The translations under genes were made by a program, and so were the position numbers. Positions 2,770 through 49,034 of a stretch of DNA of 64,000 bases are shown piece by piece. The notes under the pieces are model-generated. The model worked only from the letters and a program-made list of their open reading frames with translations, ran no database searches and was not told the origin of the DNA. Source of the DNA: an uncultured Clostridia bacterium (lineage in GTDB: Bacteria > Bacillota > Clostridia > Christensenellales > UBA1242); contig CAKVLQ010000001.1 of NCBI GenBank assembly GCA_934757845.1, positions 8,398 through 72,397 on the forward strand. The letters run 5' to 3'. Position 1 is the first letter of the stretch. Every line of letters begins with the position of its first letter.

Positions 2770-2805
2770 AGTTTAAAAACAAACAAAAGCGTTAATGCTT
2801 TTAGT

Positions 2806-18500: not shown

Positions 18501-21500
18501 TATTAATGTTGTAACAAGCCTTGCACTTATTATTGCAAAAGGTGCTAACGCAAGCGATGCTGGAGTTTCTGGCTTTGTTTGTGAAAATAGCGGGGTTATA
18601 TATAATTCTCTTGCTGTTGGGACAATAGAAGTTATAAATATGGGCTCTAACTATTCGGTTTATGCAAAAATCAAAGAATCAAACAAGATTAGTGGTTTTG
18701 TTCTTTCAAACAAAGATATAATCACAAATTGTGCTTCAGGTGTTACACTTCCACTTATGATTAAAGATGCGGATGAAACTGATGCTTTAAATACAACATT
18801 TAAAAATTCAAGCTCTGGAACAATAAGCAACTGTGTTGTTGACTTTTACGCAAATGGGAATTATAAAGAACCATCGCCAAGCGAAGGAATTGTTTATACA
18901 GACAATTTAAATGTTGAAATTGTTGCTAAATTCTCAACAAATTTGTGGCAAAAAGAAGTAGCAGGCGTAATTTATGGATATAGATATCCAGTTCTTTCAA
19001 TTTTCAAAGAAACAAGTGAAAACGGCGAAGAAAACGAATTTTTGAAAAAAATTGAAGAAGTTTTGAACACAACTGAAACAAAAAATAACAAAGTTTATCA
19101 CAAAGTTAACAATTTCAGTTCATTAAGAAATGTTATTGATTTGTTGCAAAATGATGAAAATATTGAAAATGTTAACATTAAACTTGAAAATTCCTTTATT
19201 GGTTCAGTTCAAAAAGAAGAAGTTGACAAACAAATATACGACACTATTTACAATTCAACAATTTGCATAACAAAACCATTCACTCTTGATGGAAATAATT
19301 GTGTTATTTATAATTATAGCCTTCAAAATGAAAGTAAAGATGACGATGCTTATCTTGGCTTGTTCTGGTCAAATGTTGATGCAAAAGTTGCCACTTCTGG
19401 TAGTAATATTACTATTAACAGAAATATAATAATAGAAAATTTGGCACTAAAAAATGCTAATATAAAAATTAACCCTATCAAACAAACGGGCACTGATGGT
19501 GCTAATGATGAAGCCATTAAAAACATTTATGTTGGTGGCTTTGTTGCAAAAGCATCGTGCGGAGTTAGAATTTCGGGTTGTTATATTGACGGAAAAATTG
19601 AATGTAGCGAAAAAACTGCTTCCAAATATGACCCTGACAGCACAATCGTTATTGGCGGAATCGCTGGCGATTTGAGCGAAGGCGGAAGAATTGAAAATTG
19701 TGTTAGCAAGCTTAATATTGAGGCAGATTATTTAACTGCTTCAATGGAATGTAATGAAGGCATAGTTAACAAGTCTGGATATATTGCTTATGTTGGCGGA
19801 ATTGCTGGAAATACTTCTTATGTTGAAATAAATAATAACTATGTTTTTGGCAATGTTTCAATTTCAAGTGTTAAAGAATTAAAAATGGGCGGAATTGCTG
19901 GAAAATGGGCAAATAAGTCGGGTTCTAACAATGTTATGCTTGGTCAAGTTTATTATAAAGGTGCTTATCTTGGTTATTTTGCAGATTCTGCATCAGACGA
20001 TAAATTCTTCTATAACGTTAATGCAATAGTTGGTGAATGTGATGGCACAGGTTCTGGCAACCTTTATAATGAAGGAATAACATTAACCAAAGATAACAAA
20101 ATTGCTTCAATTAGCAATGTTCAAACAATTATTGATAAAGCAAACAATATAACAAATAACAGTTTTGTTTCAAACACTAATATTTTTGAAAAACCTGTAT
20201 ATGAAATATTGGACGATACAAATCAACTTAAAGTTCTTAATGATAATACAACTTATATTATACCTTATAGTGGCACAAGTAATATTTTGTTTAATGAAAA
20301 TCAAAAACGAGATTTAACAAATACAACAATCATATTTGCAAATCCAGCAAAAGTGAGCGTTACTAAAAACATATTTGACACATTAACAAATTGTGCAATT
20401 TCAAACCTAACAATTTGTGCAGATAATGGGCTTACAACAAGTGCACTTGCAAACAAAATTGAAACCACAAAACTTTATAACATTACTGTTGAAAATATCT
20501 ATTTTTCAAGAACAACTGGAACTTCAACACAAGGTGAAAATTCAGCAAAAGATAATCATCTAACTATTGGTGGTGTTGTTGATTACGCAGTTTCTTCAAT
20601 GTTGTTTAATGTTAAAGTTAACAAAGGAAGAATTGAAGCAAACTTTAAAGGAGAAACTTCAGATGCCAAAACTTTAAGCGTTGGTGGAATTGTTGGCTAT
20701 GGCAAGCAAACTTTGTTAAGCAGTTGTGAAAACAGTGCAACAATAACCACAAGTTTTGATGGAATTACAAGAAATGACGACTTTATAATTTCAACCGCAG
20801 GCTTAATGGGGCAATCAACTGCAGGATATATCTTTGGCTCAACAAATAGTGGCCTTGTTTATGCAAAAAATTTGAAAGACCAAAAAATTGTTATCCAAAC
20901 GGCGGGAATTACAAATACTTATAGTTCAGGCAATGTAATTTCTTTCTGCAAAAACTCTGAAAAAATTAAAGGTGTAAACACTTATAAAAATCAAAGTGTT
21001 AAAAACTATGTTGCGGGAATATCAGCCTATGATGGCTCTATTGATGGCTCTGTTGGTGATACGATAAGTTATTGCTATAATAGTAATAACATAACAGCAA
21101 TTTCTAGCACAACGGGTTCAACCAATGATGTTGCAACAGGTATTGGCGGAGCATCAGTTTATTATTCATACTTTATGGGTGGTGTTGTAAGTTCTTCAAA
21201 AATCTATACGCTTACTTGTAGTAACGCATTCTACTCATATAGTTTGGGAAGTGGCTACACAGCAGGGCAAAAAGGTGGTTCTAACCTTAGTCTTGCAGGT
21301 GGGGATTATAGCACAAGCGTTGGAACAGACACAATTCTTGCAGGAATTTCAGATGCAGAGAAAGACCAAAGAAAAGAACATTGGTTTGTTACAATTTCAA
21401 AAAATAACACCGATTTGGTTGTTTTGCCTGTGGCAGACACTACAAGAACTGATGACAAAGGAAATAAAATCCCAGACTGGGCAGACACCACTCTTCAATC

Positions 21501-24500
21501 AAACTTTGTTCGACCTACAATAAGATATTTTGGAGAAGAACAATTTAAATTGCCAGAAAATAATGAAGAATATCAAATTTCAACAGCATTTGAATTGTGG
21601 TATTGGTCAAAATTTGTTTGTGGAAAAGAAAACGTTGACAAAGATGTTGCATTAACAAACGATATAGACATGACTGGTTACACATGGCAAACCCCTGCAA
21701 AATTTGATAAAACCTTTAATGGAAATTTCCACACAATAACAAACCTAGTTATTGAAAAACGAGAAGATGGAAACTCCCAATTATGGGGCTTTGTTGGACA
21801 AAATAACGGAACAATTCAAAGTATTAACTTTGAAAATGCTAGTATTAAGATAGAAACTGAAAGTGAACAAATTAAGATAGAAACTGAAAGTGAACAATCT
21901 GATTTTGCAGAAAATGTTTATGTTTCTATTGTTGCGGGCATAAATAACGGAACAATTCAAAGCATTTTGGTAGGTCAAGTTGGCGAAAGCAATCGCACAA
22001 TTTCTATCTATAGTAAAACAGGAACTTTGCAAGGCGGATTGGAGCAACTAAATTTAAGAGTTGGAGTTATTGCCGCTAACAACAGTGGTGAAGGTAAAAT
22101 TCAAGATGTTGAAGTTATAAATTTGAGTGATAGTGCAATTTATTCTGATATTCAAATAACCAAACCAGTCACACAATTCAGACCTAACAATGTTTTGGTT
22201 GAACTTGGTGGTATTGTTGGATTAAATGAAGGATCAATAGATTCAGCGTATTATTTGTCATCAGTAATTTCTAAATTGACAAATTCAAACATGTATGGAC
22301 TTACTGGAATTTCAGATGACTTAGCTGGTGATGGTAGTGCGCAACTTGCGGGTGAGTTGCTTTATGGATTATATTCTCAAGCAAAACAACATGTTGGGCA
22401 AATTGTTGGACAAAATAATAAAGGAACGATTGATAACTGTTACTCTCCAACAGGTGACGAATTTAAATATATTGCAACCCAAAACTTATTGAGCTCAATT
22501 GCAATTGGGAAAGCTACGTCAATTGCACAAGGAAATGTTGATCAAATAAAACGAATAGCTAACTTTGCAAAATTTGGTCTTGTTGCCACTATAGATACGA
22601 TTAAATGGATTAAACTTGCAAAGACGGCAAAAAACGCTTTGTCGCTTGGGAAAGCTGCGGGGGCTGGTGCTAAAGCTGCTTTGGGTCCGATTGGATGGAT
22701 TATATTATGTGTTGATGTTGCTACCGCGGCGTCTCAATATTTCATTAATCAGGCAAGTTTTGAAAGTTCATTTAACCATCATGGAATAGGTGGTATGCCT
22801 GGCGATGCATTAAGTATTTCAAATTCGGACAATGAAATTTATATAAAACAATATTGGCAAGGCTTTGAGAATATTGAAATATGTTCCGCAGTTAGAAGTT
22901 TAGAAAAAATGCCTTATAATAAATCATTTAAAAACTTAAGTTCATCATTAGTCGCTCCAAAACAAGAAAATGGCATTTATTATGTTTATAATGTTAATGA
23001 ACTTGCTTATGCATTAACTAAACTAAATGGTGCGACAATAGAACTTATGGACAACATTGATATGACAACAAAAGTTTGGGACGAAGAAGGCGAAAACGGA
23101 CTAAAGACAATTAATAAATTAACTATTATTGATAATGGCTTTAAGATTGTTTATGGAAGCAATACAAATTTTGCAACAAAATTCACTACAGCAGAATATA
23201 GTTCTGATTTGTTAAAACAAAATTCAAAAGATGCAAATGAATACGGAAAATTTGAATCAGTTTCAAAAAATCAAAATCAAGTTGCAATGGAAAAATTTGA
23301 AGGAGTATTTGAAAAAGTATGGAAAAAAGAATTTGCAAATACACATTCAGAAGCCGAGGCTGAAAGTGAATATAAAAATCAAGGAATAATAACCACCTTA
23401 TCGAGCGGACAAAAATTATACAAAGTTGATTATGCAGAGCAATTGGAAGTTATTGCTGATGCAATGGCAACATACACAATAAATAAACAGTCTTTGCATA
23501 AAGGCATAAATTTTAGCGGTTGCACTATAGAAATAAGGTCTGACTTAACAATGCCAGAAACTATGATTTCTTTAAATCAATTTATTTATGATAAAGACGG
23601 AACAACAAAAGCACCAAGTTTTGTAGTTTCAGATTCAAATTCAAATACGATTGAGCTTGATGATGAACAAAGCAGGTATGAAGCTTTTGCGGGAACTTTA
23701 AAAGGCTATAATCACACAATAACTATTAATAAAAATCAAAATTTAATCTATTCAAGTTTGGGAACAATTCAAGATATTGTGATTGATGCCACAAAAGTGA
23801 AAACAATTTCAACAAGTCAAAATCTTGGAAGTTTGGGTGTTATGATTAATTTTGGCACCATGAAAAACATTAAACTAAAAACTGCCGAAAAGCTAACCTT
23901 TGAGCAAAAGATTTCATTTGCGGATAGTCTTGAAACCCCGAGCGAAAAATTAATAGTTTCATCTAATACCAATGCCGTGACACAATTTGGTTTATTTAGT
24001 GCTATTAATGATGGAAAAATTATAAATTGTTCTTTTAATAATGAAATTATTAATATAAAATATTCTTTGGACATTGATTGGGAAAGTGGCTTAAAAGAAG
24101 CTATAGAAGACATGAAAAAACAAACAGATGATGAAACATATTCAAATCTAGATTATTATAATTACACAACAAGGCAACTTGCATGGAGTATTAATGCTGG
24201 AATAATTTCTGGTGCGAATATCGGTTCAATTAACAATGTTAATATTTATAAAACTGAAATGCGCTTTATTTTGCCTGAAGATCAAGAAATTAAATATAAT
24301 ATAAAAAATGGCGAAAATGACCAAGAAATAACTGCAAAAACCTTGTTTATGTTGAATGTTGGCTTTATTAGTGGAAGAAATGAGTATTCACATGAAATGG
24401 CAACTGATAAAGAAAGGCTTGATCTTATAAATATTAAGATTATTGGAAGTAAATTAATTACTAAAAATAAATTTTTTGGTGCTGTTGGTTTGATTTCGGG

Positions 24501-25923: not shown

Positions 25924-28900
25924 ATGAAACTTAAAAAAGTTATTTTATCGGTTTTAATAATATTGCTTGGGCTAACGGGCTCTCTTTTTGGGTGTCAGGT
26001 TAAGCCCCTTGAATTATATACTGTGGTGGATAAACAAGAGGTTTCAAAAATTTCTCTTTATATTTTGTCTTCTAATTTGGGCGAAAGCCAAACTGGACAA
26101 GAACAAGAAGACAATCAAACAAGCGAAGAAGACCAAACAGATGAAAAAACAGACAAAAAAACAATTTTTGTTTGTGCAAAAAACGCAAACGATATGTTTA
26201 ATAAAGGTTTAGATATTAGTTTTAGTGAAGCAAACATTGTGTCTTGCACGCTAAATAAAGCTGAAACCGAAAAAGCCGAAGATGCCTACGCTTTTGACAT
26301 TGTGGCATATAGGGCAAAAAATGTTATAATTACTTTTGAAACAAAAGACAAAAAAACCAAAACTGTTTTGGAAGTTGAAGTTTTGCAAGATTGTGAAAAA
26401 ATTGAAAAAAACATACATAGTGAAAACTTTGTAATTAAGGGTGAAAACAAGCAACTATCAAGCACTATTGTAAATTTTTATCCAACCACTACCACAAACA
26501 AAAATTTGAAGTTTAAATTAAGGCAAGATTATGAGGGCAAAGGAATAACTTTGTCAGAAGACGGATTTTTAAGTTTTGATGAAAATTTTGATGCTAGTTT
26601 AACAGAATTTTATGTTAACATCACTCATGAAAATCATGAAACTGCAGGCGATAATGCTGGAAATTTTGTTGTAGAAGATATTAAATTTGATATTTTAAGC
26701 CCAGTGGAAGACATTGTGGCAATAGATTCTCAAACTGACCCAAATGGCAATTTTGCAAAAATTTCAAGCCTAGAATTTGCAACAAATTTGGAAGGAACAA
26801 ATTTTAATTTTAGAACCATTGCAATTAAAAAACTTCTTAAAGATAACAGCATAGAAAATATTGGTGATAGTTTTAAGATTGAATATTATTTGAAAAATGA
26901 AGCGGAAAAACTTGTTAGCATTGAAGAAGTTGAAAATTTTGAATTAACAATTTCGCAAAATGGACGGGACGGACAAGACACTCTTGTTGTGAAAGTTGTG
27001 AATTTGTTATATCCTTCATACTTTTCAAACGAATATGAAATTAACATTGTTGTAAAAACTTATCCAAACTATATAACAATTAATGGTCAAAAGAACTTTG
27101 ACGAAGTTGCTTTGTATGACAATGGACTTTCAAAAGAACTTGAAATTAAAGTTAGTGAAAGTTACAATACAAACTTTAAAATTTTAAGCATACAAAGCGA
27201 TAAAATTTCGCTTAAATATAAAAACGGAGTTAGCGTTCAATCTACTGACATTATCGAAAGTGGAACTACACTTGTGCTATCTTGTGCTGAATATATTGAT
27301 TTTGGAACTCAAAATGAAATTTCTACGCAATTTCAAATAATCAGCGAGGGGAACGATAACTTAAATGTTTGGATTAAAGTTAGAATAATTAAAAACCTTG
27401 TTGATGCTGAAATTTATGATGCTGATGATAATAATCAAAATGATATTTCTGGCAATGACATTACATTATACAAAACCGATGTTTCTGGAAATAGCACTAT
27501 TAAAAAATATGTTGTGAAATCAACTGGTAATGTTATTATTCCTGATTTTGATATTAATGTTGAAAATCCTAATGTTGTTAAACTTGAATCTATAAATAAA
27601 CAGGAAAAAAGTTTTAGTTTAAAAGCCTTAACAACGGGCGAAAGTTTGATAACTGTTGTGTTTGACAATGGGCTTCAAAAATATTTTAATATCAATGTTT
27701 ATACTGCAATAAAAGATGTTGAGGTTTTGTTTAGCGATTATTCAAAAACATATAATATTGGAAATATAGAACAAACAACTGTCGAAAATAAAACTTTAAC
27801 CAAGTATTCAATAAAGAATGGAACAAACAGCCAACTTTTGTTTGAAGCAAAAGATATTAATGGCAATATTGTTTATGACAAATATGTTATTAGTGCAGAA
27901 TATATATTAACCTATAGTGACAATCAGCAAGAAAATTATATTGCAGTTTCAAGTGCGGATAACAAACTTTATGCACTTAAAACAACGCCAAGCAACGAGT
28001 ATGTTAAGGTTACTTGCAATATAACGGCTTATGTTTATAATGATGGAAATTATGAACTAAAAACAAAGACAAAAGAATTTTTGGTTGAAGTTTATGAACC
28101 AATTAAAAACATTATTTTGAGTGATGAATATATTACTCTTTACACACAAGATTCATTAGGATATGAAGACTATGACAAAGCAACCAAAGAAATAACTTTA
28201 ACAATTTTGCCCGCAAGTGCAACAAAAATTGATTATAAAAATCTTATTGACAAAACTGGAAATGAATATAAAAATATTCGAAAGAACTTTAATGAGGCAA
28301 ATGTTGAATTTACACCACAAATTAATGAAAAAGGTTTAAAATTAACAATTACAGCAACTAAATTTTCTGATAACAGCAATAAACAGACCGAAACAGGAAC
28401 TATTACTTTTAGCATTCAAGAGTTTAATTTTGTTTACACAAAAAGAGTTACGGTTAAAGTAATGAAGGCTCAATCACCAGAAGGAATTTCGGTTGAAAAT
28501 GTGTCACAACAAACAAATAATGAAGGAAAAATTGTTGATTATTTATATTTTAACCTTGGTTATGATAATGAAGGAATTAAGATCAATCCAAAAGTTTATC
28601 CAATTTCTTGTTTAAACACTGATTATATATTTAAAATTGTAAGCGAAAGTGAAAATCAAGATGATATTATTAGTTTTGACAGAAACGAAAACACTGTAAA
28701 ACCATTAAAAGCGGGGAAATGCAAACTTATTTTAATGCCAAAAGGTTCAATAAAAAATCCTGATGAAATTTTAAGTTGGAAAGAGGGAAAGATAAAAGAG
28801 GAAAAGATAATTGAAATTGTTGTTGGTGATGGCGAAAGTGTTCCTTACAGAATTTCATCTAAAAACGAATTGATGAACTTGTGTGAAGAAACTGTTATTA

Positions 28901-31900
28901 ATGAAGATGACGAAAATGATTTTGTTAATAGGCTTAACAAAAATTATGTTTTGACAAATGACATTGATTTAAGTTTTGAAACGGTAGTGCCAATCGGGGT
29001 TTATACTTTAAAAATCAAATCAGGAAACCTTGAAAGAAAAGTTAAAGAATTTACTGGAAGTTTGAACGGAAAATTTGAAATTGGTGGCATTTCAAACAAC
29101 TATTCTATTAATGGAATAAGTTTGAAAATTAATTCTAGTTATAAATCAAGTTTGATAAATAATAATATGTATCTTGGCTTGGTTGCACAAAACAAAGGTA
29201 AAATTTTAAACTTGACACTAAATTATTCAAGTGTTCAAGCAATTGTTTCGAGATATGCAAATCCAGCCAATTATCAAAGTGAAAATCAAAAACTTGCTTT
29301 ATATTTTGGTGGAATTAGTGCACAAAATAATGGATTAATTGAAAATTGTGAAGTTAACTTGAACAATTTTAATATTGAAACATATTTTGGAAACAACTTT
29401 GTTGGCGCAATTGCTGGATTAAATGAAAGCGAAATAAACGAAAAGAGCGAAGTTGTTAATAAAGCACAAATAAAAAATTGTTATGCTCTTGGAAATATGA
29501 ATATTGTTGACGGATATGCAAATATTCTAAACAAAAATTCAGCAGTTAGTATTCTTTTTGGTGGACTTGCCGGTCAAAACGCAGAAAAAAGCGAAATTTT
29601 GGGCGATTTTAAAATTTATAATAACAATAGCGAAATATTTAACAAAAACATAATGAATGTTACACTAAATCTTTCTTCAATAGTTGACGGGAGTTTGGCA
29701 AAACTAGCAAACAATAGTGCTTTTGGGCTTGCTTGCGGACAAAATAACGGAATTATTAAAAATATTTCTTCTTATGGAAAGATTTTTGCAAGTTTAAATG
29801 CTGGCGGAATTTGTGGAATAAACAACGGCACTGTTGGTGGTGAAAAAGAAGACGGCTGTTTTAGTGCAAGTTTGATTTCTGGTGGCATAAATGTTGGCGG
29901 ATTGATTGGACAAAATGGAGAAAACGGCATAACTAAATATAATGCGGTTATGCTTTTGGACGACAACGAGTTTTTGGAAGAAAATTCAAAAACATATAAA
30001 ATTATTGGAAATGAATTTGTTGGCGGATTGATTGGAAAAATCAATGAGAAAAACACAGCAAATAATTTTGAAAACAACTTTGTAAGAAGTTATGTTAAAA
30101 AATATGATAAATATTTTGATATTGGCGTTAAAAAAGATAATTTTGGTCCACTTTGGACAGGAGATAATTTAAAAGATAGTCAAGACTGTGTTATTAATTC
30201 AAACTTTGCCGATAATCTTTTGATTGAATTTGGAGAAAGTCAAAGCAACAAATTGTTTAAAGGCAATATAAAAGGCGATATAGAAAATATTGGCATTGAT
30301 GCACCAGACAAAATTGAAGTTAAAATTAATAACAGCACTTTAACTGGCGAAGAAATGCTTTATTCTTATAACAAATTTATAAAAGCAAATGATAACACTA
30401 TTGTTTTGTATTATTATAAAAATAGTGACTATGCAAAATATAACTATTATTTGCAAAACTTATTATTTAAAATAAGTTATACTAAAAAAAATGGTAATAA
30501 TTATGATGGTATTCCTTTCACAAAAATTGAAAGTTTAACGCCTGACATTTTGACAGTTGATGCAAAAGGAAATTTTGTGGTTAACAAAACAGGTGATGCA
30601 AAACTTTTGATTTATAGTGCATTAAACAAAGACGCAAGCCAAGAAATTGCTATAAAGGTTGTTGATTTGATTGAAAACTTTGGTGTTTTTGAAGACGGAC
30701 TTTTAGACAAAAAAATTGAAACAATTTATGTTGAAAAAGGCACAAGCAAAAATGTTTATTTATCCGAAAGTGTGGTTCAAGAAGATTTGTTTGTTAAATA
30801 TACAATAACTGGAAATAGTGGCAAAGTTATTGAAATTAACACAAATGATAGTGAATACTATTCGGTTTTGAATGGACAAGTGTTTAAAGGTTTTGAAAGA
30901 GGAAATGTTGTTGTTAAAGCCGAATTATTTGTAAAAATTAATGGAAAATATTACAAAATTTTGGGTGAATATTCATTTAATGTTGTGGTTATTGAAGGGT
31001 TGAAAGAATTTTCAACAAGCATTGAAAGAGCAGAACTTGCTTCAACATCATTTGTTAACTTTGAAGCGACTGCTGTTACAGATTTGGCTAGCAACACAAA
31101 TATTGCAGTTAAGCAAAAAGTTGAGTTAGACGAAAAATGGGAAGACGGCGAATATTTGGATTTTGAATTTGAAAAAGTAATTGCGTCTTATGGCTTTAAA
31201 CTTTTGTTTAAAGTAAAACCTTCTTTAAACAAAGAATTATTAAAACAAATTTATGGAAAAACTATTTTGTTTGATATTTATTTGTATGACGATTTGGTTA
31301 GTTTAAAAGATATTGAACAAAATCCTGAAAAATATGATAACTATAAAAAAACAATAGAATTTATTATTAATGAAAATGGCGTTATTAATGCTGAAATGCA
31401 ATATTTTGCTGACGGCGAAGTTGTTAAAAACGAAGATGGTCAAGATGTTATTAACACAAACGAACTTGAAAGCGAATTTATAAAAATTGGCAAAATTGGA
31501 ATTTTGAAAATAAATTTGTATCCAAAAGAAATTTTGGCAAAAGAAAATAGTGTGGTTTTGACTTATCAAAATAGTGATAACTATAATTTGAATTTCCAAC
31601 AAGTTGAAAAAACAAGTGATGGTTATCAAGATGTTAACACATCAAAATTAACCACAAATGGAATTATTCTTGACAATCAATATTTAACTAGCGACCCAAA
31701 TGAACAATATTTGTATGTTAAACTTTTAACTGATAGCCCAATAAAAGAAGACAGCAAGTTTGTGTTAAATTTGAATATTTCGGGTTTTGACTATGAGTTT
31801 GAAAAAGTTTTGACTAGCACACTTGCTTCAAATCTTGAAATTGCTTTTGATGGAGCGGTGCTAAATGCACAAGGCTCGCTTGAAGGAGTTTATGCAAAAG

Positions 31901-34900
31901 GAGCATCAACAAGCCAAATTATAACTCTTACTGTTAACAGATTAACAGATTATGTTCCAAATGTTGTTGTTGATGTTTCAAATCTAAATCAAGCAAACTT
32001 TGTTGAAATATTGCCTGTTGAAGACCCAGTTATGATAGGAAAAAACAGCAAACGATATAGTTATATTATTAATGGGCTTAACTATTCGGGTGAAAATGAA
32101 AGCGTTGAGTTATATTTCTTTATTGAAAAAACCGTTAATGGAAAAATTGAAAAATACAATTCAAACAAACTAAAACTTAATGTAACCGATTTTGTTGTGA
32201 AAGACATAAGCGTTGAAAAAGTTGAAAATGGATATTTAACCAAACCATTTGGAACAAGTTATCCACTTAAAGTTTCACTTGGCACAATTAATAACGGAAG
32301 TGTTGAAGTTTTGAATTTGATTAATGCGTTTGAAGAAGATTTAGCAAAGAGTTCAACTGTGGCAAACGGAAAAATTGTTTCTAATATTTTTGTTTATAAC
32401 AATCAAAAATTGTATGCAGGAATGGAAACTACTAATTTCAAAATTGAAAAAAATAATTATTTTGAAATTAATCCAAATGTGGCAAGCCGAACTTCGGGTT
32501 TTGTTGCAGACTTTGCAATAAGTTATAATTATAGTGACGGAAATGATTATTATCCTGTTAAATTAATAAAAGATTATAAAAATCAAAACGACATTTTTAT
32601 AAATGGAAACCTTTATAGCGTGCGTTTTGTTCAAAACTTTGGAACGGATTTCTATATTCAAAACGACATTAACAATCCAATTCCTGTTTATAGCAGTGAA
32701 GAATTTGTTAATATGGAACAAAATGGAAACTACATTTTGATGAATGATATTGTTTTGGCACAAAACACTGATGTTGAACTTCTTAAAAATGGCTACACTC
32801 CATTTGTTGCAAATTTTGATAGCCTTGACGGAAATGGATATAAAGTTATAATAAAAAATCTTAATGTTGATTTATCAAACACTTTGGAAGAATATAACTT
32901 TGGATTGTTTAGCGAAGTTAGCGAAAATTGTTTGATAAAAAATTTGACCGTTAAATTTGATCTTCAAAATATTTCAACCGAAAGTAACTTTGTTGAAGAC
33001 TATAACATTTTGAATTTTGAAAATGTTTCAAGTTTAACTTTTGGTTCAATTTGTGCTGTTAACAAAGGTTTAATTTATAACTGTTTTGTTGAAAGTTTAA
33101 AAAATGGTTATCAAGAAGATTTGTTCTATGTTGTTGTTCAAAATATTGTGAATGATGCTCAAACAAGGGCAGTTATTGGTGGCTTTGTTGGAAAAAATGA
33201 AGGAATTATAACAAATTCAAGAACCGAACTTAAACTTTGTGCAAGCAAAGGATTTGTTGGCGGTTTTGCTGGTGAAAACAACGGAACAATAAGTTCATGT
33301 TATTTTAAAAATGTTATTGTTAAAAACTTGGGTGAAGATGAAAACACTTCAAGTTTGGCAGGTTTCGTTCACAACAACACAGGAACTATTAAATTTAGTT
33401 TTGTTGAGGGTGATTCAAGATTTGTTGACAGTGGCAGATATTTGTGTAACACAACGCTGTCAAATTATGCTTTAACTGCTCCAACTTCTGTTGGCGGATT
33501 TGTGTTTAATAACTCTGGAAATATTGAAGATTGCTACTCAAATTTAAGTTTAACAAGTCAAAGTTATTCTGGTGGATTTGCATTCACAAACTCTGGAAAA
33601 ATTTTAAGATGTTATGCTGCAACGCTAAATGAAAAAGAAAACAATATTGCTCATGCACCTTTTATTGCAACAAAAGTTCAAATTGACGAAGAATTTATGA
33701 AAACAAATGTTAAAGATTGTTTCTATCTTAACATAAATAAAACTTTGGTTAACGATGCTTATTGCAAAGGTTTGAGCCTTGAGAATATGAATGATGAATA
33801 TTATTTAACAAACTTCATATTTGACGGCAACGATAGTGTGTGGGCGTTTAGGGGGCAAAATTTGCTTCCAACTTTGGTTGAAGCAACAAATGTTGCCGTA
33901 AGCAAGCGTTCACTTTATAGCGTAACAGAAAGCCCTAACGGCGGAATTTTATATTCTTATGTTTATAACAATAATTGTTATGCGGGAAGCAAAATAAATC
34001 CAATTATTGTTTCAAATGAAGAAGAATTTATTGAATACTTTACTTCTCAAAACAAAACAAACAGTCAATATTATAGGTTAATAAACAACATTAATTTTAG
34101 TGATTATGCGGTTATTCCAACCTATAACTATACTTTTAGTGGAAGATTTGACGGAAATGGACTTGAAATTTCAAATGTTAGAATTTCAGCACCTTCAAAT
34201 TATTCAGGTGATAGTTTTGGATTGTTTGCTAAAATTGAAAAATACAAAAATGGTGAAACTCCGATTGTTAAAAACATTAACATAAAACCTTTGGAAGTTT
34301 ATGCAAACAACGCAAGTTTTGTTGGAACTTTGGCGGGAATTGTTAAAGACGCAAACATTGTTAATATTAATGTTGATGCGCAAGATGTTATTGTTCAAGG
34401 ACGAAATATTGTTGGTGGTGTTGTTGGGCTACTTTGTGGAAACTCTAATATGGTTAATGTTTCAAGCAATGTTTCGGCAAACTCAAACTTTTCAAGTTCG
34501 GCTACTAGTGGATATTATTTGTATTATTCAAATAACGGGGAAGCACAAAATGCAAATAGCGTTTCTTATGCGGGCTCAATTTGCGGTGTTGTTGACACCG
34601 AAAAAACAAGCACCAACAATGAAACTTCACGAAATATTGAAGTAAAAGTAGGCACAAAATCTATTGCTTGGTTTGCAGGCCTTGCGTTTGGTCTTGTTTG
34701 TGAAGATTCGGGAATAGATAATGTTAAAGTTTATGTTAACAATTCAAGTTATATAAACTCAACTTATGCCGGTGGATATATTTGCGGTGAAAATCGTGGA
34801 TATATTTCAAGAGCCGAAACGATAAACGAAGGCTACGGCGGGGCAAGTTTGTTCAAAAATAATTGCAAATTTGCAGGCGGAATAGTTGGATTTAATAACA

Positions 34901-37900
34901 ACGGAACTATCGTAAATTCGTTAAGCAATGTTGCCGTTATTGGAAATTCAAAAACAATAGTGGCGGGCGGAATTGTTGGCGTTTCAGTTGGCGGAGCAAT
35001 AAGCAGTTGCGTTGCAACAAACAGCGTTTATGCTTCAAGTGTTGTTGGCGGAATTTGCGGAATGACAGCAAGACGAGAAATGTTTACAACTTCAAATCAA
35101 CAATTTAGAATTTTGAACTTATTTGAAAATGATAACGCACTTTCATCTTCGGCTATAAAAACAAACAATATAATGTATATTGCAAATTGTGTTGCAATAA
35201 ATAACTTTAACGATGATGTTTTGAGTTATCTTGATAGTAATAATGAGGGACATTATGTTGGGGCAATTATTGGTGCTGTTCAAAACACACAAAATAACGA
35301 AAGTGGAACCATTGATGTTGCAAAAAAGATAAGTTATATAACTTATGAAAATTATTATAAAAAGCAATCTTATAAAAAAGATGGTGAAACTTTTGACCTT
35401 CAAGATTATGCAGTAAACAACATAAGTGATTTTGATGTGGGAACGCAATCTAAAAACACAAAATCAGAAAATTCTTGTGCGGAAGCATTTGACAGTTTAA
35501 AATCAAATATGTTTAGTAATTTTAGCAAGAGTGTGTTTGATTTTGATGGAGAAATCTCTGAAAGTAATCTTCCAAAACTTAAATCTGCAAACAACATTAA
35601 CACCAAAAAACTTGAAGGAAGCGGAACTTATGCTGACCCTTACAGGATAAATTCTGTTAGAGCGATAAATGAACTTTCAAGCCTTGTTGAAAATGGTGCG
35701 ACTGATGTTTATGTTAATGTAACCGAAAATATTGAAGCAACAGGAAAAGAATTTAATTCTATCGGTTCTTCTGTTCACAAATTTAATGGAACATTTAATG
35801 GAAACAATTATTTTATTAATGGTTTAACTTACTTTAATGTAGACAAATATAACACAAAAAATTATTTTGGACTTTTTGGCTATGTTTCAAATTTGTCAAC
35901 AATAAGAAACCTTAATGTTGTGGCTAACTTTGTTATAAATTTTGTTCAGCCACAAAATAACAATTCAAGCATAACATCAACAGGAATAATTGCAGGCTAT
36001 AACGAAGGATATATTGCAAATTGCAACACTTATGGTGGAATGATTTGCTCGTTAAAAGATTCGTCAAACAAAATGTCTATTGCTTATGTTGGTGCTATTT
36101 GTGGAATAAATGCGGGTCAAACCCAAGCGGGTCTATTGAATTGCAAAAACTATGCAACAATTTATATTTCAATTAGCGATGTTGAAAATAGCAATAGCCT
36201 TAAAGAAAATGTTAGTTTTTATGCAGGCTTTATAAGCGGGGCAAATTTGAATGGTGCAATTATAAACAAATGTGAAAACCTTGCAACAAAAAATATTGAC
36301 CTAAACAAAGGGGCAATAAGTGGAAGCGAAAATTATACGCTTATTGTTATTAACAAAAAGAGTTCAACTTGCAAAAATTATGTTGGAACTCTTGCGGGAT
36401 TTGTTTCTGATATTAACAATGTGTATGGCGATAATGCAAATCATGAAAATATTTATGAATTAAGCTATCACAGTATTGAGACACCCACAAATCCAACAGA
36501 CCCTACTGATCCAACGGAACCTACCGAACCAACACAACCAACATTAACGTTGACATTTGATGTCGATTCTCAACAGCTTGTTAATGATGTGATTTATGGT
36601 AAAAAAGGTGATGTTGTTGCTTTGCCAACAATTAATGCTGGAGAATATGGGTTAACTGGGTATATTGTGGAATATTGGTATTTAGAACCAACTTTTAAAA
36701 CAAAAGTAGAATTCCCATATAAACTTACAAGCGATACTATCCTTTATGGATATTGGACTTATAAGCCACACGATTCAATTGATGAAGGGTTTTATAAATA
36801 TTTAGACAAATTTAATAAACATTCTTCATCAAATATTATTACAATAAACTCTCGTGAAGAATTGATTGGGTGGACTGAATATATAATGTTTAAAGATGTA
36901 ACCGAATCAATTAGTGATGAGTATAAAATTAAAGTTACATATTTAAATAACCAAACAAAAGAGAATTGGTCTGCGGAATTTACCACTGTTTGGGATATTA
37001 AAAGAAATGCGGAAGACTTATTTCACAATTCTACATACTGGTATTGGTGTCAGGATTATGTAAAAATTTATGTTAAAGATAGTGATAGCTATATAAACAA
37101 TTTGGCAAAAGTTAATGTAAGCACTGATGGCGATGATACAACTGTAACATCTACATATTCACAATTAAATTATGCCCTTGAGTATAAGGCAAGCAAATCA
37201 AGAGAAGATAACTATGATGATTTTAAAATAAACAATCTTCCAAGTTCAAAGGAAATAAGGGTTTCATCATCAACTCAATTAGTTTATGCTCTTGAACATG
37301 GTCTAAAACCAATTTGCGAAGCTGGAACCACTGCGGAAACAGTTTATAACAAAGCAAAAGCAATTTTAAGAAGCATTTGCAATGATACCATGTCCGATTA
37401 TCAAAAACTTTATGCAATCTATGATTGGCTTGTTTCAAATGTTCAATATGAACATGGGGCTTTTGGTGATGACATTAATATAAGCGATTGGGGGAGATAT
37501 CAAGAATGGTTTGCTGAAGGTGCTCTTATTAATGGCAAAGCGGTGTGTGACGGATATAGCAAAGCAGCTATAGTTTTGGCTAAAATTGAGGGGATTCCCA
37601 TAATTCGAGCAATAGGAAATAAACATGCTTGGAATAAGGTTTATATTAATGGCAACTGGTATGTTTTTGACGCAACGCACGGAGATTTTGTTGCATCATA
37701 TTCAAAAGATGGAACTAGTTATAAATCTGAAATGCTTTCACACACTGAATTTTTAACCACAGAAGAATATAAAATATCTTGTGGTTATACAGATGTGAGA
37801 CATACAGAAATTGAATGTAAAACCAAATATGATTTTTATTCTAATGCAAAATTTAGTTATGGAACTTATAATTTTGATTTAAAAATTGACACAACAAATG

Positions 37901-38106
37901 ATTTTAATGGATTAATTAATTATGTAAATTATTATTCACTAGTTAATAAACAATTTATTATTGAATTTGTTGTTGCGGGAAGTTACACTCTCCAAAATGT
38001 CACAGATAAAATAATTACGCTTGATGGCTATAGTTATTATATTTATTTTTCTAAAAAAGAAGTTAATGGCTATACAAGATATAGTTTATTATTGTTTTTT
38101 AGCTAA
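25924..38106 (+). CDS. Giant surface lipoprotein (4060 aa): Ig-like domains, GLUG-type modules, PT linker, Listeria-Bacteroides repeat, C-terminal transglutaminase-like core
   Basis: - A 12,183-nt open frame with SD aggag upstream.
- Lipoprotein signal MKLKKVILSVLIILLGLTGSLFGC, paralogous to that of gene 1.
- Acidic tether (QEQEDNQTSEEDQTDEKTDKK).
- GLUG-like repeats (FGGLAGQNAEKSEILG, VGGLIGQNGENG, IGGFVGKNEGIITNS).
- PTNPTDPTDPTEPTEPTQPT linker (36481-36540).
- GYIVEYWYLEPTFKTKVEFPYKLTSDTILYGYW repeat.
- Transglutaminase-type core GKAVCDGYS...GIPIIRAIGNKHAWNKVYINGNWYVFDATHGD. Confidence 0.85.
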   Translation: MKLKKVILSVLIILLGLTGSLFGCQVKPLELYTVVDKQEVSKISLYILSSNLGESQTGQEQEDNQTSEEDQTDEKTDKKTIFVCAKNANDMFNKGLDISFSEANIVSCTLNKAETEKAEDAYAFDIVAYRAKNVIITFETKDKKTKTVLEVEVLQDCEKIEKNIHSENFVIKGENKQLSSTIVNFYPTTTTNKNLKFKLRQDYEGKGITLSEDGFLSFDENFDASLTEFYVNITHENHETAGDNAGNFVVEDIKFDILSPVEDIVAIDSQTDPNGNFAKISSLEFATNLEGTNFNFRTIAIKKLLKDNSIENIGDSFKIEYYLKNEAEKLVSIEEVENFELTISQNGRDGQDTLVVKVVNLLYPSYFSNEYEINIVVKTYPNYITINGQKNFDEVALYDNGLSKELEIKVSESYNTNFKILSIQSDKISLKYKNGVSVQSTDIIESGTTLVLSCAEYIDFGTQNEISTQFQIISEGNDNLNVWIKVRIIKNLVDAEIYDADDNNQNDISGNDITLYKTDVSGNSTIKKYVVKSTGNVIIPDFDINVENPNVVKLESINKQEKSFSLKALTTGESLITVVFDNGLQKYFNINVYTAIKDVEVLFSDYSKTYNIGNIEQTTVENKTLTKYSIKNGTNSQLLFEAKDINGNIVYDKYVISAEYILTYSDNQQENYIAVSSADNKLYALKTTPSNEYVKVTCNITAYVYNDGNYELKTKTKEFLVEVYEPIKNIILSDEYITLYTQDSLGYEDYDKATKEITLTILPASATKIDYKNLIDKTGNEYKNIRKNFNEANVEFTPQINEKGLKLTITATKFSDNSNKQTETGTITFSIQEFNFVYTKRVTVKVMKAQSPEGISVENVSQQTNNEGKIVDYLYFNLGYDNEGIKINPKVYPISCLNTDYIFKIVSESENQDDIISFDRNENTVKPLKAGKCKLILMPKGSIKNPDEILSWKEGKIKEEKIIEIVVGDGESVPYRISSKNELMNLCEETVINEDDENDFVNRLNKNYVLTNDIDLSFETVVPIGVYTLKIKSGNLERKVKEFTGSLNGKFEIGGISNNYSINGISLKINSSYKSSLINNNMYLGLVAQNKGKILNLTLNYSSVQAIVSRYANPANYQSENQKLALYFGGISAQNNGLIENCEVNLNNFNIETYFGNNFVGAIAGLNESEINEKSEVVNKAQIKNCYALGNMNIVDGYANILNKNSAVSILFGGLAGQNAEKSEILGDFKIYNNNSEIFNKNIMNVTLNLSSIVDGSLAKLANNSAFGLACGQNNGIIKNISSYGKIFASLNAGGICGINNGTVGGEKEDGCFSASLISGGINVGGLIGQNGENGITKYNAVMLLDDNEFLEENSKTYKIIGNEFVGGLIGKINEKNTANNFENNFVRSYVKKYDKYFDIGVKKDNFGPLWTGDNLKDSQDCVINSNFADNLLIEFGESQSNKLFKGNIKGDIENIGIDAPDKIEVKINNSTLTGEEMLYSYNKFIKANDNTIVLYYYKNSDYAKYNYYLQNLLFKISYTKKNGNNYDGIPFTKIESLTPDILTVDAKGNFVVNKTGDAKLLIYSALNKDASQEIAIKVVDLIENFGVFEDGLLDKKIETIYVEKGTSKNVYLSESVVQEDLFVKYTITGNSGKVIEINTNDSEYYSVLNGQVFKGFERGNVVVKAELFVKINGKYYKILGEYSFNVVVIEGLKEFSTSIERAELASTSFVNFEATAVTDLASNTNIAVKQKVELDEKWEDGEYLDFEFEKVIASYGFKLLFKVKPSLNKELLKQIYGKTILFDIYLYDDLVSLKDIEQNPEKYDNYKKTIEFIINENGVINAEMQYFADGEVVKNEDGQDVINTNELESEFIKIGKIGILKINLYPKEILAKENSVVLTYQNSDNYNLNFQQVEKTSDGYQDVNTSKLTTNGIILDNQYLTSDPNEQYLYVKLLTDSPIKEDSKFVLNLNISGFDYEFEKVLTSTLASNLEIAFDGAVLNAQGSLEGVYAKGASTSQIITLTVNRLTDYVPNVVVDVSNLNQANFVEILPVEDPVMIGKNSKRYSYIINGLNYSGENESVELYFFIEKTVNGKIEKYNSNKLKLNVTDFVVKDISVEKVENGYLTKPFGTSYPLKVSLGTINNGSVEVLNLINAFEEDLAKSSTVANGKIVSNIFVYNNQKLYAGMETTNFKIEKNNYFEINPNVASRTSGFVADFAISYNYSDGNDYYPVKLIKDYKNQNDIFINGNLYSVRFVQNFGTDFYIQNDINNPIPVYSSEEFVNMEQNGNYILMNDIVLAQNTDVELLKNGYTPFVANFDSLDGNGYKVIIKNLNVDLSNTLEEYNFGLFSEVSENCLIKNLTVKFDLQNISTESNFVEDYNILNFENVSSLTFGSICAVNKGLIYNCFVESLKNGYQEDLFYVVVQNIVNDAQTRAVIGGFVGKNEGIITNSRTELKLCASKGFVGGFAGENNGTISSCYFKNVIVKNLGEDENTSSLAGFVHNNTGTIKFSFVEGDSRFVDSGRYLCNTTLSNYALTAPTSVGGFVFNNSGNIEDCYSNLSLTSQSYSGGFAFTNSGKILRCYAATLNEKENNIAHAPFIATKVQIDEEFMKTNVKDCFYLNINKTLVNDAYCKGLSLENMNDEYYLTNFIFDGNDSVWAFRGQNLLPTLVEATNVAVSKRSLYSVTESPNGGILYSYVYNNNCYAGSKINPIIVSNEEEFIEYFTSQNKTNSQYYRLINNINFSDYAVIPTYNYTFSGRFDGNGLEISNVRISAPSNYSGDSFGLFAKIEKYKNGETPIVKNINIKPLEVYANNASFVGTLAGIVKDANIVNINVDAQDVIVQGRNIVGGVVGLLCGNSNMVNVSSNVSANSNFSSSATSGYYLYYSNNGEAQNANSVSYAGSICGVVDTEKTSTNNETSRNIEVKVGTKSIAWFAGLAFGLVCEDSGIDNVKVYVNNSSYINSTYAGGYICGENRGYISRAETINEGYGGASLFKNNCKFAGGIVGFNNNGTIVNSLSNVAVIGNSKTIVAGGIVGVSVGGAISSCVATNSVYASSVVGGICGMTARREMFTTSNQQFRILNLFENDNALSSSAIKTNNIMYIANCVAINNFNDDVLSYLDSNNEGHYVGAIIGAVQNTQNNESGTIDVAKKISYITYENYYKKQSYKKDGETFDLQDYAVNNISDFDVGTQSKNTKSENSCAEAFDSLKSNMFSNFSKSVFDFDGEISESNLPKLKSANNINTKKLEGSGTYADPYRINSVRAINELSSLVENGATDVYVNVTENIEATGKEFNSIGSSVHKFNGTFNGNNYFINGLTYFNVDKYNTKNYFGLFGYVSNLSTIRNLNVVANFVINFVQPQNNNSSITSTGIIAGYNEGYIANCNTYGGMICSLKDSSNKMSIAYVGAICGINAGQTQAGLLNCKNYATIYISISDVENSNSLKENVSFYAGFISGANLNGAIINKCENLATKNIDLNKGAISGSENYTLIVINKKSSTCKNYVGTLAGFVSDINNVYGDNANHENIYELSYHSIETPTNPTDPTDPTEPTEPTQPTLTLTFDVDSQQLVNDVIYGKKGDVVALPTINAGEYGLTGYIVEYWYLEPTFKTKVEFPYKLTSDTILYGYWTYKPHDSIDEGFYKYLDKFNKHSSSNIITINSREELIGWTEYIMFKDVTESISDEYKIKVTYLNNQTKENWSAEFTTVWDIKRNAEDLFHNSTYWYWCQDYVKIYVKDSDSYINNLAKVNVSTDGDDTTVTSTYSQLNYALEYKASKSREDNYDDFKINNLPSSKEIRVSSSTQLVYALEHGLKPICEAGTTAETVYNKAKAILRSICNDTMSDYQKLYAIYDWLVSNVQYEHGAFGDDINISDWGRYQEWFAEGALINGKAVCDGYSKAAIVLAKIEGIPIIRAIGNKHAWNKVYINGNWYVFDATHGDFVASYSKDGTSYKSEMLSHTEFLTTEEYKISCGYTDVRHTEIECKTKYDFYSNAKFSYGTYNFDLKIDTTNDFNGLINYVNYYSLVNKQFIIEFVVAGSYTLQNVTDKIITLDGYSYYIYFSKKEVNGYTRYSLLLFFS

Positions 38107-38158
38107 TATTATAATAAATCAAATTTAATATTTAAGTTATTTTATAACAAATATAAAA

Positions 38159-38186
38159 ATGCAAAAAATTATTTTGCATTTTTTTA
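38159..38186 (+). terminator. Candidate AT-rich terminator after giant gene 2
   Basis: atgcaaaa (38159-38166) pairs with ttttgcat (38172-38179), then a T run. Confidence 0.45.
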
Positions 38187-38205
38187 AAATATTTTTTTAA
38201 AATAA

Positions 38206-38234
38206 TTGACAAGTTGATTTTTATGTGTTATTAT
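38206..38234 (+). promoter_or_regulatory. Sigma-A type extended -10 promoter of rpoB
   Basis: TTGACA (38206-38211), 17-nt spacer, TGtTATTAT (hexamer at 38229-38234). Confidence 0.55.
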
Positions 38235-38341
38235 ACTATGAACTACAAGTAGTGATTTTTTGTCGTGAACTAAAAAGAATGAATGTTTTTGGGCGAAAGA
38301 ATGAATTGCTTAACTAAAAATTTAAGGAGTATAAATTTTAC

Positions 38342-47200: not shown

Positions 47201-47524
47201 ATGAAACAACAATTCGTTTATCCAGCAGTGCTATATTTTGATGAAGAAAACAATAATTATGCGGTGGCATTTAATGACCTTGACATTTTCACCGAAGGCG
47301 ACACCGTTGAAGATGCTTTTAAAAGTGCCAAAGAATATTTGATTGCTTATCTTGAATGTGCAAATCATATTAATAATGAAATTGAAAACCCAACAAGTTA
47401 TATTGTTGTAAAAAACAGTCATCAAGCCGACATTGTTCTTTTGGTTGACGGAGAACTTGATTTGGATAATCCACAAAGCAAATTTATGCCAGATGATTTG
47501 GATAGCGATTTGTTTGAAGAATAA
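47201..47524 (+). CDS. HicB-like (UPF0150/HicB_lk antitoxin fold) protein, no HicA partner
   Basis: FVYPAVLYFDEENNNYAVAFNDLDIFTEGDTVEDAFKSAKEYLIAYLE matches the N-terminal HicB-type pattern (YPA.f..de.ggY.v.fpDlpg..teGdT.eEA...AkeaL). It has an acidic C-terminus and no RHH or HTH domain. SD aggagag is upstream. Confidence 0.55.
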   Translation: MKQQFVYPAVLYFDEENNNYAVAFNDLDIFTEGDTVEDAFKSAKEYLIAYLECANHINNEIENPTSYIVVKNSHQADIVLLVDGELDLDNPQSKFMPDDLDSDLFEE

Positions 47525-49027: not shown

Positions 49028-49034
49028 TATTGTA

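Follow-up and report, generated by a model that had tools for sequence, protein, structure and literature searches.

A predicted transglutaminase-like thiol enzyme cassette at the C-terminus of a giant lipoprotein from an uncultured Clostridia bacterium

The prokaryotic members of the transglutaminase-like superfamily, as surveyed by Makarova, Aravind and Koonin in 1999 and summarised in PMC10318531, are said to be mostly predicted hydrolases. Among the PF01841 (Transglut_core) proteins of bacteria, TgpA of P. aeruginosa acts as a transglutaminase in vitro (PMC3507681), and the S. suis TGase (4XZ7) is reported to be important for virulence (PMC10318531, citing Yu et al., 2015). Both have an extracytoplasmic location, as is predicted for the protein region described here, the last 541 residues (the tail) of a giant lipoprotein from an uncultured Clostridia bacterium. 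They are nevertheless distant from the tail, with no direct PDB sequence match at E<=1, and are built and anchored differently: they have other accessory domains, and TgpA is a polytopic inner-membrane protein. The best solved relative of the tail, by sequence and by fold, is S. pyogenes TglA (9CRN, a 'transglutaminase-like domain-containing protein'). Its C..., HAWN and D.T motifs align with those of the tail, and its structure matches the tail model with a Foldseek E of 4e-8 over 413 columns. Unlike the giant lipoprotein, 9CRN has 379 aa, no Flg_new repeat and no giant carrier; it is 14% identical to the tail in the structural alignment, with sequence similarity confined to about 135 core positions. 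No function for it was found in the literature searched, where 'TglA' refers to 3-thiaglutamate biosynthesis or is unrelated.

Two further systems share single traits with this protein. The Mycoplasma MAG6410-family transglutaminase-related lipoproteins (NF045980) likewise combine a lipoprotein with a transglutaminase-like core. NF045980 is the best NCBIfam match of the tail, but at 57.5-57.8 bits against a cut-off of 450 and over positions 151-297 of 622; membership of this family was rejected, the equivalog score being far too low and only about 150 of the 622 positions being matched. LapG, a BTLCP, is a transglutaminase-like cysteine protease whose function is bound up with a giant surface protein, the adhesin LapA on which it acts. 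The parallel is no more than an analogy: LapG belongs to PF06035 and is a separate periplasmic Gram-negative protein that is not fused to its substrate LapA. PF06035 was absent among the Pfam matches of the tail at E<=0.01.

Relatives along most of the tail are found among Clostridia surface proteins that join Flg_new repeats to a Transglut_core domain. They are 34-45% identical to it over 80-90% of its 541 aa, the best relative reaching only 43-45%, and they repeat its order of a last Flg_new repeat, an accessory subdomain, the core and a C-terminal subdomain, with an invariant triad. Representative clusters related to the tail number 9450 at E<=1e-3, 1328 at 1e-10 and 229 at 1e-30, and species genomes hold at least 554 loci, almost all of them from uncultured gut or rumen Clostridia (mostly MAGs). 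The median length of the module-bearing proteins is 816 aa, with the module at the C-terminus. The usual architecture of the family is normally a membrane- or lipid-anchored protein of about 500-1200 aa in which the cassette comes last, after several Flg_new repeats. The combination of Flg_new with the 446-aa module is thus a large family without a characterised member, and a biochemical assignment for one of them would annotate thousands of proteins. Across 80 homologous loci, a search for conserved gene neighbours returned no operon partner, no hint of a substrate and no conserved small downstream ORF.

The protein considered here, giant protein 2, is encoded in a stretch of 64,000 nucleotides (the window) by an uninterrupted plus-strand ORF at 25924-38106 and has 4060 aa. 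It differs from the Flg_new and Transglut_core surface proteins, which have 400-2100 aa, usually two to five Flg_new repeats and an N-terminal anchor of their own, either TM or lipobox; the longest of them reaches about half the length of giant protein 2, whose tail holds one such repeat, the last. Genetic code 4 was considered for the window and rejected: no in-frame TGA occurs across 26 ORFs, which stop at 23 TAA, 2 TAG and 1 TGA. Ahead of the tail, giant protein 2 has two parts:

25924 to 25995, plus strand: signal peptide with lipobox (LFG-C24), translation MKLKKVILSVLIILLGLTGSLFGC; read as a pattern, without a predictor score.
25996 to 36480, plus strand: body (aa 25-3519), the carrier; Asn-rich, with GLUG-like motifs (Pfam and orthologue alignments).

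The N-terminus, MKLKKVILSVLIILLGLTGSLFGC, consists of MKLKK, a hydrophobic core and LFG-C24, so that residue 24 would be the lipobox cysteine; bacterial lipoproteins are characterized by a signal peptide of this kind, closed by a lipobox and its invariant Cys. Giant protein 1, the adjacent paralogue, starts almost identically (MKLKK...LTGVFFGC, lipobox FFG-C) and is likewise of lipoprotein type. The lipid tether that the initial annotation had proposed for giant protein 2 is therefore borne out as a sequence-based prediction, by its own lipobox and by that of its paralogue. The body is 28% identical to giant protein 1 across about 1300 aa. It was described initially as about 3500 aa of structural modules, a wording that could not be confirmed; the only signal in a Pfam profile scan was a sub-threshold GLUG motif (18.5 bits against 20.5). 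A single-sequence structure model of the end of the body had a pLDDT of 31. A word-index homology search with aa 2801-3519 returned only weak GLUG-motif proteins, a result we regard as a false negative because orthologues 37-46% identical to the body emerged through rpoB synteny.

The tail comprises a Pro/Thr (PT) linker, one B-repeat and a 446-aa module of three subdomains:

36481 to 36543, plus strand: PT linker TPTNPTDPTDPTEPTEPTQPT, aa 3520-3540, 21 residues; graft junction (coordinates and orthologue ends).
36541 to 36762, plus strand: single B-repeat or Flg_new-like beta-grasp domain, aa 3540-3613 (PF09479, AF2 and Foldseek).
36763 to 37230, plus strand: N-terminal accessory subdomain, aa 3614-3769; conserved with homologues, with motifs such as GFY.Y..KF.
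37231 to 37761, plus strand: transglutaminase-like catalytic core, aa 3770-3946, its Pfam part being aa 3814-3917 (nt 37363-37674) (PF01841 and model).
37762 to 38103, plus strand: C-terminal alpha/beta subdomain, aa 3947-4060 (model, pLDDT 62-90).

The linker is the sole Pro/Thr-rich one across giant proteins 1 and 2. Its presence had been noted correctly before; only the coordinates were off, in that the string quoted for it begins one codon after the start given, a trivial shift. The domain that follows had been called a Listeria-Bacteroides repeat, and here fold and profile score part ways. In Foldseek the AF2 model of the domain, which has a pLDDT of about 90, pairs with 2Y5P, an InlB B-repeat, at a probability of 1.00 and a TM of 0.62 over 75 columns, the family profile reaches 2Y5P with an E of 0.003, and the domain aligns with the last Flg_new-type repeat of the homologues; as modelled, it has the beta-grasp fold of InlB B-repeats. 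However, PF09479 falls short of its cut-off of 27 with 20.6 bits, aligned at profile positions 2-63 of 65 with an E of 5e-4, and TIGR02543 gives no match on the tail at E<=0.1, while homologues reach 26-102 bits. The curated Flg_new score is thus not attained, and the tandem array of Flg_new is missing as well, with one copy and no further Flg_new signal in the 4060 aa.

Within the module, the accessory subdomain has no Pfam match, and its model falls below a pLDDT of 50 at tail residues 141-211. The core, in contrast, carries the sole above-threshold Pfam match of the whole protein. With PF01841, whose gathering cut-off is 23 bits, a C-terminal fragment of 601 aa reaches 45.3 bits and the complete protein 41.6; the match covers profile positions 3-108 of 108 with an E of 1e-11. 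The profile search that had been proposed as a check thus agrees with the transglutaminase-like core that was read from the letters. The C-terminal subdomain is modelled as a beta-alpha-beta-alpha-beta-beta unit with weak, Alba/IF3-C-like fold matches only; it is present in most relatives, which extend a median of 15 residues beyond the module. Direct comparison of the core with the PDB as a single sequence gave 9CRN (E 1e-5) and 3ISR (E 2e-3), and the family profile reached 9CRN at an E of 2e-17. The AlphaFold (AF2) model of the tail has a pTM of 0.84 with a core pLDDT mostly above 90, and its Foldseek matches are 9CRN (4e-8), 3ISR (1e-4) and 4XZ7 (1e-3). The match to 3ISR, a putative cysteine protease from Cytophaga, has an rmsd of 3.7-4.1 A over 122 columns. 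A viral fold library returned nothing for the tail at E<=1e-3. Three codons specify the predicted active site:

37546 to 37548, plus strand: TGT, Cys3875, predicted nucleophile; in 164 of 164 relatives, aligned with the Cys of 9CRN and 3ISR.
37624 to 37626, plus strand: CAT, His3901, in the HAWN motif; kept by 164 of 164 relatives, located where strand 383-389 of the tail model begins.
37669 to 37671, plus strand: GAC, Asp3916, in the D-A-T motif; kept by 164 of 164 relatives, located where strand 392-396 of the tail model ends.

These lie exactly where the initial annotation had put them. The Cys-His-Asp set is invariant among all 164 aligned relatives, and its three residues line up with their counterparts in 9CRN and 3ISR. 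In the tail model Cys3875 sits at the N-terminus of helix 356-369, with the His and the Asp on neighbouring strands, which is the arrangement of a papain-like fold; the structure prediction called for earlier thus produced the canonical Cys/His/Asp topology together with transglutaminase-like fold matches. Of 29 positions conserved at 90% or more in the family, the copy in the window keeps 28, its differences being only conservative; of 48 conserved at 80% or more it matches 45, and it ranks 60th of 165 by conservation. From the invariant triad, the conserved surroundings and the modelled topology, the domain appears potentially active, as had been suggested, and bears no sign of lost activity.

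The position of this module on a giant carrier is not shared by close relatives. Eight species were compared, the window and seven relatives whose RpoB is 81-89% identical to that of the window. All seven have an orthologous giant gene upstream of rpoB, encoding 3390-3569 aa that are 37-46% identical to the body, and their alignments to giant protein 2 run out at residues 3492-3519, up against the start of the PT linker; in the C-terminal alignment the L083, L084 and L085 orthologues stop at the linker position. Six of the seven C-termini are bare and that of L086 bears an unrelated extension of about 110 aa, and tblastn with the tail against the giant-gene loci of the seven relatives found nothing. 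Among the eight species compared, only that of the window has the tail on its giant protein. Because the seven orthologues end where the linker begins and lack the tail, it is read as a lineage-specific C-terminal graft, gained in the window lineage by parsimony on unrooted sequence comparisons; alternatively, the tail may have been lost in the seven relatives. The tail has no similarity to the rest of giant proteins 1 and 2, and its 1.6 kb are not flanked by meaningful direct or inverted repeats of the kind left as mobile-element scars. Since the seven sisters carry no module on the giant protein, and the module otherwise sits on proteins of a median 816 aa, display on a giant carrier would be particular to this lineage and would have no share in how the module functions. 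That the body forms a long stalk holding the enzyme far from the cell, as the initial annotation suggested, is thus at most a possible geometry. The seven tail-less orthologues mark the exact junction and make the window a clean, datable example of domain accretion; as they do so, they also define the tail (aa 3520-4060) as a ready-made soluble expression construct.

The graft is followed closely by the rpoB promoter region. The spacer between the stop codon of giant protein 2 and rpoB has 235 nt and holds two elements:

38152 to 38193, plus strand: AT-rich hairpin with T-run, terminator-like; inverted repeat I5 (38152-38166 / 38172-38186, 93% complementarity).
38206 to 38234, plus strand: rpoB promoter-like site TTGACA-17-TATTAT, 11 of 12 positions with TG extension; end of the inserted segment.

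The hairpin fails a scan for GC-rich terminators. In three sister species the promoter-like site and the leader are conserved downstream of a giant gene that has no tail.

On balance, we consider it somewhat probable that the tail is a self-contained surface-enzyme cassette, an active thiol amidase or transamidase with hydrolysis favoured, that was grafted in the window lineage. The activity, reaction type, substrate and display geometry of the cassette, as we infer them, would be the following. Giant protein 2 would be exported and lipid-anchored at Cys24, with the PT linker presumably flexible and the B-repeat serving as a beta-grasp spacer ahead of the module. The thiolate of Cys3875, activated by His3901 and oriented by Asp3916, would attack the amide carbonyl of an extracellular protein or peptide and form a thioester. 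Water would then resolve the thioester, with a protease, isopeptidase or Gln-deamidase outcome as the favoured result; less probably, a primary amine would resolve it and yield cross-linking. Proteolysis, deamidation and cross-linking are also the roles that the initial annotation had considered. The amine route describes a true transglutaminase, in which Lys or a polyamine takes the place of water and host mucus, matrix or the cell's own coat is cross-linked so that the cell is anchored or shielded. We regard this as possible but unlikely. The tail has the fold and the HxW and D.T motifs of PF01841, and TgpA and the S. suis TGase, both assayed bacterial PF01841 proteins, showed or were described with such activity (PMC3507681; PMC10318531), 4XZ7 being moreover a structural match of the tail. 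On the other hand, neither calcium-site nor acyl-acceptor features were identified in the tail. Most prokaryotic members of the superfamily, moreover, are predicted hydrolases.

A hydrolase could in theory be directed at the cell's own coat, in the manner of LapG, with cleavage in cis or in trans releasing or maturing giant proteins 1 and/or 2. The fusion of a transglutaminase-like Cys enzyme to a giant lipoprotein that has an adjacent paralogue would fit this, as would the placement of LapG-type BTLCPs in the same structural cluster (PMC10318531). It is nonetheless very unlikely, as the N-terminal parts of the module relatives examined have no similarity to the giant body, the seven sister species have the giant protein and not the module, and no PF06035 match was obtained. 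Also very unlikely is a non-catalytic module for binding or adhesion. Inactive transglutaminase-like domains do exist, as in Cyk3 or Rad4 (PMC3386208), and the cassette includes an adhesin-type B-repeat, but a triad kept in 164 of 164 relatives amid strongly conserved motifs is the pattern expected from a maintained active site. The variable C-terminus of the giant family among close species (bare ends, the extension of about 110 aa in L086, and the tail of 541 aa) recalls polymorphic toxins with interchangeable C-terminal effectors against competing bacteria, in which papain-fold toxin domains are known (PMC10318531). This reading was rejected, and we see it as remote, because the 235-nt spacer has no room for a cognate immunity gene, the conserved rpoB promoter beginning about 100 nt past the stop. 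Moreover, the homologues are anchored surface proteins of an ordinary kind, encoded among housekeeping genes and not followed by a conserved small ORF, and a signature dedicated to secretion or delivery was not seen. That the junction of body and tail is a metagenome assembly chimera, with the tail taken from a separate gene, is scarcely credible, even though the junction is known from metagenome assemblies only and the protein stands alone in its 90% cluster. Two pipelines gave contigs encoding the identical 4060-aa product (42 kb in Logan ERR7738630 and a 553-kb ENA scaffold), the junction is in frame through the PT linker, the tail has the same GC and GC3 as the body, and the conserved rpoB leader follows directly. 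A free-standing gene would also need a start and a signal peptide, which the tail does not have.

Any annotation pipeline would give the label of a transglutaminase domain here, and what is unusual about this ordinary domain is its architecture. One may go on to suppose that the C-terminus of the giant lipoprotein is an accretion point at which tip modules are swapped, the body being a generic display scaffold and the tip, a complete cassette borrowed from short Clostridial surface proteins, a recently recruited activity directed at host or diet. We put this forward tentatively and think it rather doubtful; substrates at the tip would then be, for example, mucin, IgA or gluten-type Gln-rich gut proteins. 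If the enzyme were to deamidate or cross-link Gln-rich host or dietary proteins, it would, speculatively, have a bearing on gut ecology. Nearness to rpoB recurs elsewhere in the family: at six Christensenella-like homologous loci, rpoB lies 3-5.6 kb downstream. This is treated as coincidence or ancient synteny because those genomes are distant, their RpoB being 44-53% identical to that of the window.

The last 541 residues of giant protein 2 (aa 3520-4060), here called the tail, comprise a Pro/Thr linker, a B-repeat and a transglutaminase-like module. The relevant features of the window are as follows:

6541..25647, + strand: giant protein 1, 6368 aa, neighbour of giant protein 2
25924..38106, + strand: giant protein 2, uninterrupted ORF of 4060 aa
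36481-36543, + strand: Pro/Thr linker TPTNPTDPTDPTEPTEPTQPT, aa 3520-3540
38206-38341: promoter-like site of rpoB, TTGACA-17-TATTAT with TG, and a leader block (about 60 nt)

The N-terminus of giant protein 2, MKLKKVILSVLIILLGLTGSLFGC, is a lipoprotein-type signal peptide in which residue 24 is the lipobox cysteine, and the signal peptide and lipobox of giant protein 1 are nearly identical. The two proteins share 28% identity over about 1300 aa (residues 1842-3020 of giant protein 2 and 1839-3124 of giant protein 1) together with the first 250 aa. In giant protein 1, no Pfam domain passes its threshold and the C-terminus lacks a recognisable module, and in the body of giant protein 2 Pfam detects GLUG motifs alone, below threshold.

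The Pro/Thr linker, the sole one of its kind in the two giant proteins, had been located correctly in the initial annotation, but the string quoted for it was one codon off its start. The transglutaminase-like core claimed there was borne out by a profile search: Transglut_core (PF01841, gathering cut-off 23) matches aa 3814-3917 over the full profile with 45.3 bits in a 601-aa C-terminal fragment and 41.6 bits in the whole protein, and it is the only Pfam match across giant protein 2. The catalytic codons also lie where they were called, namely C3875 (TGT, 37546-37548), H3901 (CAT, 37624-37626) and D3916 (GAC, 37669-37671). The proposed Listeria-Bacteroides repeat is supported by its fold but not by sequence profiles, with PF09479 below threshold (20.6 bits against a cut-off of 27, E 5e-4) and TIGR02543 giving no match to this segment.

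An AlphaFold2 model of the tail, built from 19 sequences, has a mean pLDDT of 78.8 and a pTM of 0.84, with values of about 90 in the B-repeat, mostly above 90 in the catalytic core and partly poor in an accessory subdomain (tail residues 141-211). In this model, Cys lies at the start of helix 356-369, His before strand 383-389 and Asp after strand 392-396, and the predicted topology of the triad is the canonical one of papain and transglutaminases. The proposed core is likewise consistent with the transglutaminase-like folds retrieved with the model:

Foldseek matches of the tail model in the PDB
9CRN, S. pyogenes TglA: E 4e-8, 413 columns
3ISR, Cytophaga putative cysteine protease: E 1e-4, rmsd about 4 A, 26% identity
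4XZ7, TGase (from S. suis according to PMC10318531): E 1e-3
2Y5P, InlB B-repeat, matching the Flg_new part: probability 1.00, TM 0.62

The family profile also matches 9CRN (E 2e-17), and in that alignment the motifs C, HAWN and D.T are in register. TglA is the nearest solved relative of the tail's subfamily, and we found no function for it in the literature that was accessible. A viral fold library gave no significant match to the model.

Profile score, triad and fold place the tail in the Transglut_core superfamily, within which it falls in a Flg_new-associated subfamily that has no name. NCBIfam has no model for this subfamily, and its best match, MAG6410_fam_LP, was rejected as an identity (58 bits against a cut-off of 450), as was BTLCP/LapG; public sources gave no name for the relatives. 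A search of 5.8 billion proteins yielded 20 relatives with 30-40% identity, all of 548-947 aa; those aligned have a hydrophobic anchor or lipobox at the N-terminus, and most of them carry Flg_new repeats followed by Transglut_core. An exhaustive HMMER search over 1.84 billion cluster representatives returned 9450, 1328 and 229 matches at E<=1e-3, 1e-10 and 1e-30, respectively. The 165 proteins from both searches have a median length of 816 aa and carry the module at the C-terminal end, followed by 15 residues in the median; giant protein 2 is the longest, and the runner-up has 2116 aa. When one genome per GTDB species was scanned with a sequence pattern, at least 554 loci matched (best identity 43%), nearly all in MAGs of uncultured gut, rumen or caecal Clostridia or Christensenellales. 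All 164 aligned relatives have the Cys, the His and the Asp. The tail itself keeps 28 of the 29 positions conserved at 90% or more and 45 of the 48 at 80% or more; its differences are all conservative and its conservation score exceeds the family median. No conserved gene neighbour was found among 80 loci of relatives.

It is the architecture that is unusual: a lipoprotein of 3519 aa, specific to the lineage, carries the cassette at its end. Nothing else in the two giant proteins resembles the tail, and the giant bodies share no sequence with the 164 relatives of the tail. A set of MAGs, including one labelled Christensenellales and another from a Hadza gut sample, share 81-89% RpoB identity with the window. 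In seven of these relatives, rpoB is preceded, either immediately or with one small gene in between, by a giant ORF (3390-3569 aa) for which no Pfam match is recorded. Identity of these orthologues to giant protein 2 is 37-46%, the alignments end at its residues 3492-3519, where the Pro/Thr linker starts, and most of the proteins terminate 0-30 residues further on; tblastn with the tail gave no match in any of the seven loci. In more distant relatives, with an RpoB identity of 73-77%, this position lacks a giant gene. From these comparisons, we read the tail as a probable lineage-specific graft. Its composition (GC 0.309, GC3 0.192) matches that of the body (0.297 +/- 0.02 and 0.201 +/- 0.014) and no repeats flank it, so either the event is not recent by composition or the donor had a similar one; the nearest homologues lie in MAG loci with 29-42% GC. 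Two assembly pipelines produced contigs that encode the identical 4060-aa protein, and this speaks against a chimera. The C-terminus of the giant family is variable, since one sister-species orthologue runs on past the shared body into an unrelated extension of about 110 aa without a Pfam match (L086:9196-9735, ENA ERZ27297789 k141_2788595). That this end is a swap point for tip modules is a speculative and rather unlikely idea.

The tail is followed by an AT-rich hairpin and then by the TTGACA-17-TATTAT promoter and leader of rpoB, which are kept in the sister species behind the tail-less gene. The promoter-like site and the leader block, TGA.CTA...TAG.GATTTTTTG...AAGAATGAATGTTTTTG, are strongly conserved in four species, whereas the flanking intergenic sequence is divergent; the block may be a regulatory leader.

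Giant protein 2 combines a signal for export and lipid anchoring with a flexible linker, a spacer of the B-repeat type and a core of transglutaminase fold, the triad and surrounding motifs of which are strongly conserved throughout the family. The protein would be lipid-anchored at the membrane surface, and an extracellular amide substrate would form a thioester with the Cys3875 thiolate. Resolved by water, this intermediate would make the enzyme a protease, isopeptidase or deamidase; resolved by an amine, it would lead to cross-linking. We favour hydrolysis as the predicted outcome because most prokaryotic members of the superfamily are predicted hydrolases, according to the background summarised in PMC10318531. 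A cross-linking transglutaminase nevertheless keeps substantial weight, as transglutaminase is what was reported for the two bacterial members of PF01841 that have been assayed, TgpA (PMC3507681) and the S. suis TGase (cited in PMC10318531). A polymorphic toxin was rejected because there is no space for an immunity gene. Great distance from the cell does not demonstrably contribute to the mechanism, since elsewhere the module works on short carriers and sister species have the giant protein without it. Confinement of the tail family to strict anaerobes would fit an extracellular thiol enzyme that needs a reduced state.

Elsewhere in the window, the following genes were identified:

2806-3291 (+): DUF1779 (YwmB-like) protein, upstream of the giant genes
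3352-3915 (+): Peptidase_M23 protein, upstream of the giant genes
5616-6368 (-): PP-loop (TilS-like) ATPase, upstream of the giant genes
47201-47524 (+): HicB-like antitoxin (PF15919, 28.7 bits), downstream of rpoC
47695-48918 (-) and 48999-50396 (+): two GT4 glycosyltransferases, between rpoC and rpsL
56883-58740 (-): large serine recombinase (Resolvase, Recombinase and Zn_ribbon_recom, 508 aa) and adjacent HTH_3 regulator

The M23 peptidase, together with a Mur ligase in a related locus (L088), suggests that the lineage has a peptidoglycan wall. The HicB-like gene keeps its position in five sister loci (L083, L084, L086, L089 and L091). Other glycosyltransferases occupy the rpoC-rpsL spot in sister species (two GT4 in L086, GT2 and GT28-like in L089, one GT4 in L091), and these genes form a variable islet for glycosylation next to the genes of the giant surface proteins, which it might glycosylate. 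The 26 long ORFs of the window end in 23 TAA, two TAG and one TGA, with no in-frame TGA; this agrees with the standard bacterial code, even though the composition is Mollicutes-like (24-36% GC) and the best NCBIfam match is to a Mycoplasma family. The recombinase pair lies about 2 kb downstream of tuf, beyond the 55164-56123 ORF, and in this region GC drops and the GC skew changes sign, so that an integrated element may begin at about 56.5 kb.
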